Positions 44,701 through 50,700 of a DNA stretch of 64,000 nt are shown here, piece after piece (the stretch's first letter is position 1; every line of letters begins with the position of its first letter). The DNA lies in contig JBFLWF010000001.1 in NCBI GenBank assembly GCA_040758355.1, forward strand, positions 96,001-160,000, in the 5' to 3' direction. A program made the position numbers. Source of the DNA: Nitrospirota bacterium (GTDB taxonomy: Bacteria; Nitrospirota; Thermodesulfovibrionia; Thermodesulfovibrionales; Dissulfurispiraceae).

Positions 44701-47700
44701 GGTAGTTTTCTTCATTTGTGCATTTTGCCGAACTGAGGATGCCTATGGAGTCAGGGCCGTGTTTCCTTTTTATTTCATCAAGGCGTGCTGCTACGAGAGT
44801 TAATGCCTCATTCCATGTTGATCTTCTAAATTCCCCGTTCTGCCTTATCATCGGATATTTCAGCCTGTCAGGATGTGCAACAAACTCATGGGCGTTCCAG
44901 CCCTTTACGCACAGGCTTCCCCTGTTTACAGGATGGGATCTGCTTGGAGATACACCTACGATCTTTCCGTTTTCTACATGGAGATAGAGGCCGCATCCGC
45001 AGCCGCAATATGGACAGACTGTGGGAACCTTGTTCATAATTTCTATTTTAACAAACTTTATGCCCTATATCTTCATCATAGCGACATGATCGCTTATTTT
45101 CCGAAAAGTCAAAACAGGAAAATTTATAAATCTATTCTACATCCAACGGTCCCATATTCGAACTCATCAGGCATTTCTATGGATATCCTCTTTATTGCCT
45201 CAAAACCGGTACAGTGAATAGGAACAATCTTTTTTACATTAAGTCGTCTGAATTCGTTTATCGTTTTTTCAATCTTGGCTTCTCCAGGGCCTATCAGGTG
45301 AAAGCCGCCTATCACGCAATAGATGTCATCAATCCCGGTTATCTTTATAGCCTGCTCAATTGTATTAATTATCCCGGCATGACTGCAGCCTGCAATGATA
45401 ACAAGTCCTTTTTTGGTATTTATTATCACGCCCTGGTCATCGAGAACCCTATCGTTCAATGTTTCATCATCCCTTTTTATTCTGAACACATTTAATTCTT
45501 CCCATAAATGAATCCTCGGTATCTCTCCTGTAGTAATGACGCCCCTTGATAACTTAACCGGCTCTTTATGAAGTTCCAGAAATTGTCTCCGTGGGTCGAT
45601 TTGAGGGCTTGTCAATTCATAACTTACACCTTCCTTAGGAACGAGGTATCGCTGATAAAATGAGTCTGGATGAGCTATGACCTTTCCTTTGAGTTTAGGA
45701 AGCCCCCCTGTGTGGTCGTTATGTCCGTGAGATAAAAAGACAACATCGATGTCATCGAAAGTCAGGCCAATAAGGTTGAGATTGTGCTCCAGAGCAATCC
45801 CTGTAGCTCCTGTATCCACGAGTATCTTCTTGCCTTCAGTTTCTATCAATGCTGAAAACCCGTGTTCGGCAATGAAATTTGAGCTTGGCTTAGAAAGACG
45901 GTTTATCATTTTGCTCCCTGGAATTAACTCCATGATAGTGTTATCCACAAGGATGGTTATCACAGCTTCAACTGTTTCTAAAGCCTCTTTGATAGATTCC
46001 ATTATATCCTCCTCGATATGTTAAAAGCAGCCAACGAATTTGTTTAGAAGATCTTAAATATGTCTCCTGTAAATTCTTCGTACATTATCCCTGATATTGG
46101 TATATTTTCAGGGATTAGTTTTGATTGCCTTATAACTTCAGCCTGTTTTTTTAAATTGGCCTCCGGGTCTTTAAAGTTCTTGATTAGACTCCTAATGTCT
46201 TTTTTCTCCATTTTTCCCTGTAATTTTTCATCAAGCTCATCCACTATCAGCCTCACATTTGCTTCTCTGATTCTGCAGTCTCTATGGCCTATAATAAATA
46301 TTTCCTCTGTGCCAAAGACCCTGGTAGAAAAAACTAAGGCCCTTAGTTCAGAATCGTCAATGAGAAGCCCTGCATTTCTTAGGATATATGCATTGTCCTT
46401 GTTTTGCTGCAGAATATTTTCAAGATTCAGTCTGCAGTCCATGCAGAGTATCATCGCTACTTTCTTAGATGCAGCATCTCTGAGGTTAAATTTTCTTTTC
46501 TCATCATGTGCGATCAACCCCAAGGGTTTTTTTGTCAAAAATCTCTGTCTTGCGTCATCCACATAAGAGGTGAGGCTGATTGCCCCCCATGTACAAGCCT
46601 CTTCACACTTCCCGCAGCCTATACATGCATCAGGATTTGACAGCCATGGTATAAAGACCCCTTTATTTTCGGTTTCCCACATCTCGAGACCATGTACAGG
46701 ACAGGCATTAACACAATCGGTACAACCTTCACATTGAGCTGGGATAACCCATGGTAAAGCCTTTTTCACGACTTTCTTTTCTTGTTCAACTCCGCTTTCG
46801 ATAATCATCTTTCCCCCATTATTTTCTCAATTTATGTTTCTTCTCTCCCACTGAAGCAGAAAATCGTTTTTAGAAGCTGCGGCCCATTGGGCCGCAGCAA
46901 TGGAAACGCCGCCATTTTACCCGGATCTTCATCCTTTCGGAGGCGTTAAGTCCTTCCAATGACTCTGATCGAATTCCTCGACTTCTCCGTAAGGCATTAC
47001 ATCCAACCTTTTGCCAGCTTCGGGTCCTGGTTTTGTGCAATAAATTTCGTTTACCTCTACAGTGAGCTCCTTTCCATTTATTTTTGCAGTTCCCTTAAGT
47101 TGATAAGGCGCCCTTACACAGCCGAGACCTCCGGGGCCGATAGCCACTTGCGGATTCTCAGAAATATTGTCTTTGATATGATTTATTTGGGCATCGGTTA
47201 AAGGGAATTTTATGATGTTAATTCCTTCTACCTTAGCTGTTTCTACAACAATTGTTGTAGGAAACCCTTTCTTTGTTGCAGTCCCAATGTGTCCTCCAAA
47301 ATACTCTATCCAATTTTTCATTCTTGGTGTTAACTGTGACATCCTCTCCTCCCTTATAATATTTTTTTGCCTGATTCATCAGGCTTATAGCTATAGACTT
47401 CTTCAACCTTCATTGCTATTACTCCCCTTTGCATACATACAGGCGGCCTAATATCTGGAGGAACTTCATCAGGCGGTTCCTTTTCAGCCCAGTTGCCCCA
47501 TTCGTCAATAACTTCTTTGGCGTTAAGCCCGTGAAATTCATAATCCGGAGGAAGTCCTGGTATAAGACAAGTAGTCGGCCCTCTAAATGCCCATGTCCTG
47601 TCTTTAACCGGATGAGCTACCGTGATGATTGCAATTGGATTTTCTTGAAGGTTTACCTTTGTCTTTTGTGCAAACATGTCTGCTATGAGAATATATCTGT

Positions 47701-50700
47701 CCTTAACAACAGTTATAAACCGCTCCCCGACAGTATTGCATTTTCCATCCGCATTACACGTTGTTAAGTGGACTACAACGCCTCCCTTACCGATAACCTT
47801 TAAGGCATCTTTCATTTCATCTGTCAATTTCATTTTACTCTCCCCCATTGTTTTAAAATTTCGCTCTCATCTCACCAGAAATTTAAACTTTTTACTTATC
47901 ATCTGATACCTATGTCATTCTCCTGCACCTCCTTCCTACCATTACATGATATAGCTTGATATAACAAGTTTTAAAATAAAAAAATTATCCTTATTTGGTT
48001 ATGGGAAAATTGGAGACCCTCGTCTTAAATCTATAGAGGTCTCCCCGCATAACCGAAGCAATCCATCCACAAGGGGTATTATCTTTCTTATACGCTACCA
48101 GATCGACATAAAATGCCAGGCTGCCAGCAGGCACCTGAAGATACTTTGATTCATCGGACCGAACTGTTGTTACTTCGATGGTGACATCAGCGTATTCATT
48201 ACAGATGTGGCATTTTCCGGCCAAAACATCAAAGACAGCCTGACTCTCGATACTTGTTGGGTCTTCATAGACATGGGAATTGAGTATCTTGCAATCTGTA
48301 CAGACTATGAATTTTTTCTCAAGCACATAGGGCTTTTTATCAGCAAGAAAGAGCCGTTTTATACAAAATACATCTTCGTTTAGAGGCACCATGAGCTTCT
48401 CCGACACAAGTTTACTGGCCTTAATACGCCTAACGTCTAAAATCTTCACTTCGGGCTTCAATCCTCTTTCGGTCATATCTTCAAAAAAGTCGGGAATCTT
48501 TATCATGAGATCCAGCTTAGGCTCTGCTACAAAGGTTCCCTTACCCTTAATCGCATATAACAATCCATCCTGTGTCAGCTTTTTTAAGGCTTCCCTCACT
48601 GTAATTCTGCTTACTCCATACACTTTGCAAAGTTCTGTTTCAGAGGGCAGCATATCATGGGCTTGCAGCATCCTGTTCCTTATCTGACTGTAAATAATGT
48701 CAATTAATTGGTTATAGGCTGGAATTGGAGATCTTTTATTTACGGTAGCAGAAGCATCTCCTGGAACCGGGGGGAATTTATGCATTTTGTGAAATACCTC
48801 CAACTTGTTATGACATGATATTACTACATGGTTTTATCTCTGTCAAGGAAAAAATTTCTTGCAAAATATATTTTTCATTCCCTTGCTATTCCCCATCTCT
48901 TCCTTTTTTCCCAGAGGGACTTTCTTGTAATTCCGAGCATGTCCGCAAGCTGCTGCTCGTTAAACTCGTCCTGGTGTTTCTGGATAAACGCCTTTGTGTA
49001 GTCCTCGATGGAGAGTTTATCGCCGAGGGCTGCATGTATAAATGACCCTTCTGTTTTTATGCCCTCCGGCAAATGCTCTGCCCTTATAACTCCGTCTTCT
49101 GCTATGAGGATTGCCCTTTCTATTATGTTCTGTAGTTCCCTGATATTGCCGGGCCAGTGGTATGCTTTGAGGATCTCCGATGCCTCGTTATCTATCTCAT
49201 TCACCGGTTTGCCCAGTTCCTTTGAATATTTATGTATGAAATATCTTACCAATAGTTCTATATCCTCTTTCCTCTCCCTCAAGGGAGGAAGCTTTATGGT
49301 AATCACGTTTATCCTGTAAAAGAGGTCTTCCCTGAAAGTCCCCTCGTTTATGGTATTTTCTATATCCTTGTTTGTAGCAGATATAAATCTCAGGTCAACC
49401 TTAATGCTCTGTGTCCCGCCCACCGGCCTTATCTCATGGTCTTCAAGCACCCTCAGGAGCTTTGATTGAAGGCCGATGCTCAAATCACCAATCTCATCGA
49501 GGAATACAGTGCCTCCGTTTGCTTCTTCAAAAAGCCCCTTCTTTGAAGTTATTGCGCCTGTAAAGGCGCCCCTTACATGGCCGAAGAGTTCTGACTCAAG
49601 GAGATTCTCAGGGATGGCGCTGCAGTTAATTGGTATAAAGGTCTTGTCTGCTCTGCTGCTGTTAAAGTGTATAGCCCTCGCAATGAGCTCCTTGCCCGTG
49701 CCTGTTTCTCCAAGTAAAAGCACATTGCTCCTTGCGTCTGCAATCTTCTTTACCTCGGTGATTATCTTCTGCATTGCTGAACTCTCGCCTATTATCCTGC
49801 TGAAGTCGTACTGCCTTTCTATCTGTTTTTTGAGGAGGACATTTTCTGCCTGAAGTGCCCTTTGTTTAAGGGCATTTTTTACAATCTGCTTTATCTCTTC
49901 ATGTATGATGGGCTTTACGACATAGTCGTAAGCGCCTGCCCTGAGGGCTTCAACAGCGGTCTCTAAAGAGGCGTATGCCGTAACTATTATTACGGTCTGG
50001 TCAGGAAACTTTTCCTTTATTCTTTTAAGGAGCTCTATGCCGTCGATTCCTGGCAGTATGATGTCTGTTATTATGATGTCATAAATGCCTTTATCGAGCA
50101 TTTCGAGGGCAGACTCTGCATTGTCAACAACTTCGGCCTCGTAGCCGTCCCTTAAAAATACCCTTCTCAGGGATGAACTCAGGGTCTCTTCATCTTCAAC
50201 TATGAGTATTCTCTCAGACATTGGGCTGTATCGGCAACTTTATCACAAATGTCGTTCCCTCTCCCTTTTTGCTTTTTACAGTGATTGTGCCGTTGTGCTC
50301 CCTGATTATACCATAGCAGATGCTCAGGCCTAATCCAGTGCCCTTTCCAAAAGGCTTTGTTGTAAAGAAGGGGTCGAATATTTTGTCCATCACAGATTCC
50401 TCTATTCCAACGCCTGTGTCATGGAAAATAATCTCGATGAAATTGCCAGTCCTTTCCATTTTAATATCGAGCCTTCCCCCTTCGGGCATGGCATCGAGGG
50501 CATTGAGCATCAGGTTTAGAAAGACCTGCTGTATCTGGTCAGGATTGAATAGTAATCTGGGAATATCTCCTATTTCTGTATCGAGATGTATATCTTTAAA
50601 CCTCTTGTCGTATTTCACCAGATTAATTGTACGATCAAGTATCTCGGGGATGCTCGAAACCGTTTTTTCCACGGATGATATCCGTGCAAAGTCTCCGAGG

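Follow-up and report, generated by a model that had tools for sequence, protein, structure and literature searches.

Zinc is redox-inert, a Phe-Phe pair at the tunnel is regarded as diagnostic of CS2 hydrolase, and the superfamily of FMN-binding split barrels counts flavoredoxin and the Nim proteins among its members. Beta-carbonic anhydrases (beta-CAs) and the enzymes of COS and CS2 conversion work by hydrolysis, for which no electrons are required, COS hydrolases can be found among clade-D enzymes whose tunnels are open like that of CafC, and the fungal COSases lack the extra loop of the bacterial enzyme, COS hydrolase having no reliable sequence signature (PMC12035519), so that this activity is not excludable by sequence. 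CS2 hydrolase has a long hydrophobic tunnel in its oligomer and turns over CS2 without hydrating CO2 (PMC8217695), the dyad Arg and the Gly after the last zinc-ligand Cys are described features of type I beta-CAs (PMC3230598), ATC hydrolase breaks a C-S bond (PMC5847659), and the ligand of a split barrel can be FMN, F420, haem or none, an oxidoreductase role not being obligatory and HupZ being a proposed haem chaperone (PMC11602992).

In the window, the whole stretch of 64,000 nucleotides analyzed from a Nitrospirota bacterium, g00133 (46044..46808, minus strand) encodes a 254-aa ferredoxin-beta-CA fusion protein, as indicated by the open reading frame, Pfam matches (Fer4_7, 25-76; Pro_CA, 118-224), homologues, and dN/dS. 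A preliminary description had claimed such a protein with about twenty relatives, and this was borne out: 22 homologues were found at E<=1e-5, of which 21 carry both Fer4 and Pro_CA, and the exception (P0027, 187 aa) starts within the last helix of the ferredoxin. The fusion was retained in 21 clusters with identity down to about 50%, and a further 12 loci with the fusion, including a broken one, came to light, where previously the context of only one relative had been reported. Compared with the copy in another genus (G178), g00133 showed purifying selection (dN/dS 0.05), and its CA domain showed 1 non-synonymous and 11 synonymous differences (dN/dS 0.02), ruling out a decayed CA relic; an assembly artefact was ruled out by the 21 fused homologues together with an independent contig spanning 44360-48916. 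Mean pairwise identity in the homologue alignment was 79% for the ferredoxin domain versus 59% for the CA core. The AlphaFold model of the g00133 monomer gave no confident domain arrangement (pLDDT <50 at residues 1-40 and 63-81), so its geometry argues neither for nor against redox wiring. The fusion is an architecture without earlier description, as had been claimed and as held in the literature searched: neither it nor the barrel-ferredoxin core treated below was described in titles and abstract beginnings (supplements and most subscription papers lie outside this scope), and the words ferredoxin, fusion, and fused are absent from the main text of PMC13098186, whose supplementary tables might name such proteins. 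The supplementary tables of PMC13524815 might likewise name fusion or barrel-ferredoxin proteins.

The CA domain (residues 113-254; 46047..46472, minus strand), with C122, D124, R126, H175, and C178, is predicted from sequence, structural comparison, and tree to be of the Clade-D/Cab-type beta-CA fold. The zinc site had been called intact, which stood for the ligands C122, H175, and C178 (22/22 homologues) and for D124 (21/22), but not for the surrounding residues: the Asp-Arg dyad is D124/R126 in g00133, whereas position 126 is Arg in 10 and Lys in 12 of the 22 homologues, and the Gly after the last ligand Cys, Arg179 in g00133, is kept in only 9. One homologue (P0010) carries D124E and has lost RNAG. 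The fused CA domains form one clade (support 97/95, stem 1.17) that groups with clade-D rows versus canonical CAs (support 100/98); its unfused members were none at 30-138 aa and P0027 only at 139-445 aa. Residues R181 and E245 are invariant in and specific to this clade, which could mean a tighter coupling than our best explanation assumes. The top 11 rows of the structural comparison were all Cab-type entries, that is, nearer to the Cab type than to the plant type. Special kinship with CS2 hydrolases, previously suggested, did not hold up. Among solved structures, five entries precede the CS2 hydrolase 3TEN in the sequence ranking (3LAS, CafC twice, Cab, and TvaCA1), and the structural ranking also puts it in sixth place (Z 13.7 versus 15.8 for 3LAS); the Phe-Phe pair is absent from the fused CAs (Phe at 164 in 0/22, at 165 in 3/22); and an FF-bearing CA from the same phylum (L009) branches outside the fused clade. 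A CS2-hydrolase identity of g00133 was ruled out by this rank, the absent pair, and the tree position. That COS may be a substrate of a clade-D beta-CA was judged a correct suggestion. The genome under study encodes a second, canonical beta-CA, and the g00133-type fusion is the sole Pro_CA match in three of the five fusion genomes.

The 2x[4Fe-4S] ferredoxin domain (residues 18-90; 46539..46757, minus strand), delimited by the subfamily alignment and homologue search, belongs to a distinct subfamily that is mostly stand-alone elsewhere and is tied to the g00134/g00135 barrels. It is marked by Pro-Trp ahead of both cluster motifs, together with a helix at the C-terminus, and its best matches among 1.84 billion representatives were mostly proteins of 60-130 aa. 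Eight cluster cysteines, in two CxxCxxCxxxC motifs, were kept in 21/21 full-length homologues and 28/28 rows of the subfamily alignment; thus far the earlier statement that both motifs are invariantly CxxCxxCxxxCP was correct, but the second motif ends C72-[T/V/I/A]-W74, with CP in 0/21. The proteins of g00134 (137 aa; 46929..47342) and g00135 (47354..47848, likely start 47833), both on the minus strand, had been regarded as lacking a family; they are probably paralogous PNPOx/HupZ-like split barrels. For g00135, the score against PNPOx_N (PF01243) was 27.1 bits, just below the cut-off of 28.1, and one homologue reached 35.8 bits; the match to HupZ, the solved barrel nearest to these proteins, had an E value of 8e-4. 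The corresponding value for g00134 was 0.07; apart from this, only the match of its profile to that of g00135 (95.4%, E 1.9e-8) places it in the fold. The g00135 protein has a conserved Trp/Pro-rich insertion and keeps a K-T-x-x-N stretch that g00134 lacks. An F420 dependence of the barrels was rejected, since no F420 ligase was found in the genome under study (99% complete). Between g00134 and g00133 lies a 21-nt GC-rich inverted repeat (46877..46897).

We surveyed 80 loci from bacteria and Methanomicrobiales, gathered with the g00134 profile; both barrel types were found in 80/80, a presence that is partly by construction, and a g00133-type ferredoxin in 69/80, a tally that covers barrel-bearing loci, ferredoxin copies without barrels lying outside it. 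All five fused loci that were reached by searching with the CA (G178, G006, L119-121) have the barrels too; a metagenome scan with a single CA sequence as query gave only three loci. The ferredoxin was unfused in 55 of the 69 loci and was attached to the C-terminus of a NuoF-like protein in 6 and to a CA in 8; in 55 of the 69 it lay at most 1.3 kb downstream of the g00134 homologue. Among the 11 loci without ferredoxin, 9 stop at a contig end, 1 has a stop-broken fused gene, and 1 (L035) is limited by its flank, the ferredoxin being present further on. A model of the barrel-barrel-ferredoxin complex scored 0.45 versus 0.01 for the best of three controls, with at least 74% of contacts agreeing between runs and partner pLDDT of at least 77. 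Of 157 solved complexes 116 attain the score mark, as do 2 of 215 mismatches, and 0.45 falls in the weak range of this calibration (<=0.60), which holds only 18 of the solved complexes and both mismatches; the model hints at complex formation. Given the ferredoxin in 69/80 barrel loci, mostly unfused, and this model, the ferredoxin probably serves the barrels. The barrel-ferredoxin core is spread among at least 10 phyla of anaerobes, methanogens included; Methanospirillum, Methanoculleus, Acetobacterium, and Desulfofundulus are cultured organisms that have it in unfused form.

The module, earlier taken to comprise four genes, contains five, with a GntR gene upstream: the cassette (GntR, two split barrels, Fd-CA, MBL; 45038..48868, minus strand; about 3.83 kb) was delimited by empty sites, GC content, and identity. 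Its last gene, g00132 (45124..46002, minus strand), encodes a metallo-beta-lactamase-fold protein of the TM1679/2P4Z type, and such a gene occurs in 9/9 CA-bearing loci among the 80. The cassette sits between a sigma54 response regulator (RR) and fdhA, with a GC content of 40.5% versus 46% in the flanks; its ends share only the 5-nt ATGAA, and no recombinase, integrase, or transposase lies within the five genes. The site is empty in three congeners (G090, G114, and G013), the RR end overlapping the start of fdhA in G090, and a fourth (G172) also carries fdhA without the cassette; a copy with 92% nucleotide identity occupies another site in another genus (G178). The cassette is mobile, an accessory addition inside the genus-resident RR-fdhA junction. 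Outside it lie the resident fdhA (Cys type) and the HydB/AsrA-like and HydG/AsrB-like genes (41047..45037, minus strand). FdhA scored above the TIGR01591 cut-off and, as stated before, lacks an in-frame TGA (Cys134-His135, no in-frame stop). Its proposed functional link to the module could not be sustained at this site: because four congeners have fdhA without the cassette, the FdhA neighbourhood is probably incidental, and the resident junction ruled out FdhA as a module member here.

The GntR regulator (HutC/UTRA by Pfam; 47991..48803, minus strand) is 94% identical in the G178 copy, and the GntR cluster was found in 14/80 loci. One candidate operator palindrome (48805..48816) lies beside a sigma70-like promoter (-35 at 48846, -10 ending at 48818; 10/12 matches), and a second lies upstream of g00135 (47956..47967). 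Of 14 GntR loci, 8 carry the pattern upstream of their first barrel gene, versus 1 of 61 without GntR, a count that is not independent, as the pattern was derived from these same loci; it has 57 sites in 2.77 Mb, and the only two in the window flank gntR. GntR may act as a repressor at these palindromes.

Of the 80 loci, 22 have a gene of the ATC-hydrolase family in the accessory slot, 17 a CCG protein, 25 a 590-aa orphan, and 9 a CA. Two of these classes never occurred at one locus within the flanks examined; on the tree the classes group together (11 changes where 4 is the minimum), so the exclusivity is partly inheritance, and it fails past the flank, the L035 contig carrying an orphan and an ordinary CA, as well as at the genome level, two of the five fusion genomes carrying the orphan elsewhere. 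DsrE was present in 6/80 loci, a thiocyanate dehydrogenase homologue (E 7e-157) adjoins one cluster, and several ATC-hydrolase-type loci have genes for copper-ATPase, cupredoxin, and OsmC nearby; none of the five cassette genes is sulfur-specific, and cysteate synthase was not found in the genome under study. The alternative slot partners hint at C-S chemistry, and DsrE, the thiocyanate dehydrogenase homologue, the C-S cleavage by ATC hydrolase, and the COS hydrolases possible in clade D speak for it as well. The 590-aa orphan adjoins larB/larE/larC nickel-pincer genes and is a candidate nickel-pincer enzyme. It gave no Pfam/NCBIfam family, no Atlas or PDB sequence match, and no Foldseek match at E<=0.001; its best VIA Z was 5.6, and methyl-coenzyme M reductase chains (Z 4.6 and 4.3) were within noise. 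A working CODH partner was rejected, the CooS-like genes of orphan-type clusters lacking the C-cluster ligands that the same genome's own Wood-Ljungdahl CooS keeps.

We proposed, with a probability of roughly 60% for the architecture, substrate excluded, that the ferredoxin serves the barrel pair and that the CA, drawn from one divergent clade, works as a hydrolase on a tether and takes no part in redox chemistry. The g00133 gene would have arisen in its lineage by the joining of two genes that neighboured each other in an operon, and be added to a conserved three-part core of g00135, g00134, and a dedicated electron-carrier ferredoxin. The barrels would probably form a heterodimeric oxidoreductase, with FMN as the likeliest cofactor, to which the ferredoxin would pass electrons, and the zinc domain would separately hydrolyse a small molecule that the core reaction makes or consumes; the tether would bring co-expression and proximity, and no electron flow to zinc. 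The core substrate is, we guess, most likely a small C-S compound. For the CA domain, hydrolysis of COS to CO2 and H2S (COS clean-up) is the best substrate guess, a tentative one; CO2/bicarbonate or carbamate handling is doubtful, and the chance of something else falls somewhat short of even. A more far-reaching proposal is rather unlikely in its entirety: the barrel pair and ferredoxin would be an undescribed ferredoxin-driven enzyme of anaerobes and methanogens cleaving a small C-S compound (thiocyanate, CS2, a thiocarbamate, or a coenzyme M thioether), and the fused beta-CA, ATC-hydrolase-family protein, CCG iron-sulfur protein, and 590-aa protein would be interchangeable in the downstream step, the last as a nickel-pincer enzyme unrelated to LarA.

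The ferredoxin had been described as wired to the CA, its clusters feeding or gating the beta-CA-like metal site for reductive COS/CS2/SCN- cleavage or redox-switched hydrolysis. Such a single enzyme could account for the fusion kept in 21 clusters, the lack of unfused clade members at 30-445 aa other than P0027, the altered second shell (R126K in 12/22, R181 invariant), and the long stem branch; however, in 61 of 69 loci the ferredoxin stands alone or is fused to NuoF, its occurrence follows that of the barrels, zinc has no redox activity, and electrons are not required to hydrolyse COS or CS2, which makes this reading very unlikely. An ordinary CA of formate/CO2 metabolism, with the ferredoxin linking it to formate dehydrogenase (FDH), is unlikely, although active CAs (Cab, Rv1284) are among the nearest solved structures, the fusion is the only Pro_CA match in three fusion genomes, and the MBL gene is followed by an NAD-type FDH in L057 (above the TIGR01591 cut-off), in L119 (84% identical to that of L057), possibly in L065, and in the window. 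The window's fdhA, though, is a resident gene to which the cassette was added; no FDH lies beside the G178 copy or L040, L041, L056, L059, and L072; a canonical beta-CA exists in the same genome; and the dyad Arg and post-Cys Gly of type I beta-CAs (PMC3230598) are relaxed. A CA domain that binds zinc or a ligand without catalysis, as a sensor, scaffold, or dimeriser within a cassette for stress response or metal detoxification with haem- or flavin-binding barrels, is decidedly unlikely: the eroded second shell, including P0010, the proposed haem-chaperone role of HupZ, the solved barrel nearest to these, and the copper-ATPase, cupredoxin, and OsmC genes would fit, but the three ligands (22/22), the Asp (21/22), and the dN/dS of 0.02 speak against it, and metal-resistance neighbours were not seen at fusion loci.

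The fusion itself is a new architecture in a well-known enzyme class and links a zinc enzyme that can be assayed to a redox core of three genes as yet uncharacterised; with five genes, among them a regulator, the unit is compact enough for expression and assay. If the C-S reading is true, it would uncover a route by which anaerobes handle COS, CS2, or thiocyanate-type compounds. The 590-aa candidate nickel-pincer enzyme would be missed by Pfam-based screens (PMC13524815).

Compared with the clade D/Cab-type beta-CAs (S. mutans 3LAS, Cab 1G5C, Rv1284 1YLK, CafC 6JQC, and TvaCA1 6Y04), the CA domain of g00133 shares the fold (Z 13.6-15.8, about 135-140 residues aligned, rmsd 3.4-4.1), the Cys-x-Asp and His-x-x-Cys ligands, and the RNAG loop; however, the fused proteins have an N-terminal ferredoxin, form a separate long-stem clade, and often have Lys for the dyad Arg, with the second Gly of NAGG and the Gly of CGM unconserved. 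With COS hydrolase (Thiobacillus thioparus 3VQJ; fungal COSases), g00133 shares clade and ligands, but the structural Z is only 12.4-12.5 and the domain has about 142 aa versus 219. With the CS2 hydrolase of Acidianus (3TEN), about 30% identity and the fold are in common (Z 13.6-13.7), whereas its Phe-Phe is V164-F165 in g00133 and mostly V/L/I-L in the homologues. Like the superfamily of FMN-binding split barrels (PNPOx_N; HupZ 5ESC), g00135 and g00134 appear to carry the fold signature; unlike it, they form an obligate-looking paralogue pair with a dedicated ferredoxin.

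On the minus strand of the window, gntR (47991-48803), g00135 (47354-47848), g00134 (46929-47342), g00133 (46044-46808) and g00132 (45124-46002; metallo-beta-lactamase fold, MBL) are followed by fdhA and two hydrogenase/AsrAB-like genes. The g00133 product carries a Fer4_7 domain at residues 25-76 and a Pro_CA domain at 118-224, and both domains were present in 21 of 22 homologues from a protein search with 425 candidates. In their alignment, the eight cluster cysteines were kept in all 21 full-length rows; C122, H175 and C178 were kept in 22/22 rows and D124 in 21/22. Thus, the ferredoxin-carbonic anhydrase (CA) fusion proposed in the preliminary description is real, and its zinc ligands are intact; however, the surroundings of the site are relaxed, with Lys at the R126 position in 12 of 22 homologues, the Gly after C178 kept in 9/22 and the second Gly of NAGG in 2/22. 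The second cluster motif ends C-x-W, rather than following the CxxCxxCxxxCP pattern claimed for both.

In a search of 1.84 billion representatives with the ferredoxin part alone, the fused cluster ranked first and a NuoF-type fragment second, and most of the hits below them were small stand-alone proteins that share the Pro-Trp signatures of the g00133 ferredoxin. The neighbouring genes, previously considered to lack a family, probably encode paralogous split barrels: g00135 is PNPOx_N/HupZ-like, and g00134 has at least 138 relatives. A species-genome scan with a g00134 profile yielded 95 relatives, and the best 80 loci were analyzed with HMMs built from sequences gathered here (ferredoxin counted at score ≥60). 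Both barrel types were found at 80/80 of these loci and the g00133-type ferredoxin at 69/80. The bacterial carriers among these best 80 belong to Nitrospirota, Nitrospinota, Bacillota, Bacteroidota, Chlorobiota, Actinomycetota, Chloroflexota, Myxococcota, Thermodesulfobacteriota and one Gallionella bin, and the archaeal carriers to Methanomicrobiales; in 401 genomes of the phylum to which the window belongs, the ferredoxin was found in 6. The 69 ferredoxins comprise 53 short frames, two long GC-rich frames without a recognised partner domain, six that close a NuoF-like protein and eight joined to CA, and a ninth fused gene (L065) is broken by a stop at a conserved Trp. Gene order was the same in three metagenome loci reached from the CA side. 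Two different neighbours have thus fused with the ferredoxin, which has remained with the barrels and mostly stands unfused beside them; this makes the earlier proposal that its clusters are wired to the CA improbable. A model of g00135, g00134 and the ferredoxin with two clusters scored 0.45, which the tool rates as weak support, compared with 0.01 for the best control.

In the NuoF-fused clusters, the ferredoxin terminates a CooS-like/NuoF chain whose CooS lacks C-cluster ligands. This pseudo-CODH, upstream of the NuoF-ferredoxin fusion at L052:7985-9868 and five similar loci, is a duplicate of the Wood-Ljungdahl CooS that kept the B/D-cluster cysteines and lost the C-cluster ligands; the chain is perhaps an electron-supply wire. 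At 36 of the 80 loci (L051:5649-6347 and 35 others), a familyless membrane protein of ~230 aa lies between g00134 and the ferredoxin; the window cassette lacks it. In Methanomicrobiales (L098-L117), the barrel-ferredoxin core comes after a CCG iron-sulfur protein and is often convergent on mch. At some loci (L059:12020-14458, L119:10624-12991), the fusion is separated from the MBL gene by an AAA+ ATPase and a protein resembling vWA, a chelatase-like pair as judged by eye.

The further gene accompanying the core varied among the best 80 of 95 loci: a 590-aa orphan in 25, an ATC-hydrolase-family gene in 22, the CCG protein in 17 (all Methanomicrobiales), CA in nine and none seen in seven. When these labels were mapped on a tree of 78 barrel pairs, from which the truncated L039 and L047 were omitted, 11 changes were required, with at least three each for the orphan and the ATC-hydrolase class. 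This suggests that the accessories replace each other in one functional slot, although related loci are not independent, one contig carries the orphan together with an ordinary CA, and the orphan occurs elsewhere in two of five fusion genomes. The nature of the partners favours C-S chemistry. According to the part of PMC5847659 consulted, ATC hydrolase breaks the C-S bond of a thiazoline; DsrE occurs in 6 of the best 80 loci, and a thiocyanate dehydrogenase homologue (E 7e-157 to 5F75) closes one Nitrospirota cluster (L035:10754-12289), where an ABC permease accompanies it after the module. Barrel-free orphan copies adjoin MtaA/CmuA-like genes (below the cut-off), and one lies beside cysteate synthase and sulfopyruvate decarboxylase. 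In the genome carrying the window (G000), tblastn gave no match to the orphan, the membrane partner or the ATC hydrolase, and cysteate synthase was not found.

We therefore favour, at a probability of about 0.62, a scheme in which the ferredoxin would feed electrons to a barrel oxidoreductase (g00135 and g00134), and the zinc CA domain would be a tethered, non-redox hydrolase. Neither the fusion nor the barrel-ferredoxin core was described in the titles and abstract openings of the literature searched; of the two, the wider, uncharacterised core deserves the greater interest.

The orphan (L042:6770-8539 and 24 other loci; also L148:8223-13077 and L150:8260-10026) belongs to no Pfam or NCBIfam family, and its modelled fold (pTM 0.87) has no clear match (best Z 5.6). 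Of its 25 loci, 16 also contain LarB or LarE, compared with 1 of the 55 others, and 22 contain a LarC-type gene; copies without barrels likewise lie near larE/larB/larC, MtaA-like genes and a second paralogue. It is a candidate nickel-pincer enzyme unrelated to LarA, a reading to be taken with caution since LarA occurs elsewhere in three of five genomes with the orphan. G000, which is 99% complete, has larB, larE and larC homologues on contigs C12, C17 and C19, and LarA (PF09861) was not found there; another nickel-pincer client may therefore exist in this genome.

The five-gene cassette is mobile. Three genomes of the same genus have fdhA directly adjoining the response regulator, whose last codons overlap the fdhA start in G090, and a fourth congener has fdhA without the cassette. 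At this joint the window carries an extra 3.83 kb with a GC content of 40.5% versus 46% and ATGAA at both ends. In another genus (G178), the cassette lies at a different site without fdhA at 92% identity, whereas the regulator/kinase genes of G178 are 74-75% identical. A gain in the window lineage would be simpler than loss in four congeners. An independent run yielded a contig that covers 44360-48916 with 99% identity. In run X3, 45549-47921 is missing from the dominant population (depth ~2200 versus 57) and the flanking remnants are frameshifted, so loss of the cassette is under way there. A sigma70-like promoter was identified in the cassette, with palindromes in front of gntR and g00135; the palindrome pattern, derived from these same loci, precedes the first barrel gene in 8 of the 14 loci with GntR and in 1 of the 61 others. 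Between g00132 and fdhA, the coding strand showed no terminator-like site, and read-through is therefore possible. In L057 and L119, a formate dehydrogenase (FDH) comes after the module, which leaves room for a formate/CO2 link. The stretch 41047-45037 encodes the genus-resident Cys-type FdhA with AsrA/HydB- and AsrB/HydG-like subunits; in relatives, it is coupled to a sigma54 regulator. A second FDH of G000 contains a single in-frame TGA.

By sequence, the solved structures closest to the CA domain were 3LAS, CafC (two entries), Cab and TvaCA1, followed by CS2 hydrolase, Rv1284 and COS hydrolase (COSase); residues 105-190 alone ranked Rv1284, CafC, COSase, CS2 hydrolase and 3LAS within 6 bits. 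For the AlphaFold model, which has a mean pLDDT of 69 and a poorly resolved ferredoxin part, structural Z scores were 15.8 for 3LAS, 14.6 for Cab, 13.7 for CS2 hydrolase and 12.5 for COSase. A Phe-Phe pair is diagnostic for CS2 hydrolase, and V164-F165 occupy the positions aligned to that of 3TEN. The domain is a clade-D enzyme, and the special kinship with CS2 hydrolases previously claimed for it is not supported. When 49 CA domains were placed in a tree, in which long branches were flagged, the 21 fused rows formed a single clade (support 97/95, stem 1.17 changes per site) set apart from the phylum's unfused clade-D rows, one of which bears FF. One non-synonymous against 11 synonymous differences from the G178 copy indicate that the CA domain is maintained; G000 also encodes a second, canonical beta-CA. 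COS clean-up is our best single guess at the substrate, tentative and with the odds somewhat against it. COS hydrolysis is unreadable from sequence because fungal clade-D COSases have tunnels resembling those of CafC and Rv1284, as stated in the part of PMC12035519 consulted. Compared with known systems, the g00133 CA domain belongs to the clade-D beta-CA fold family, is set apart from CS2 hydrolase by the single sequence feature tested, the Phe-Phe pair, and possibly works like a COSase.
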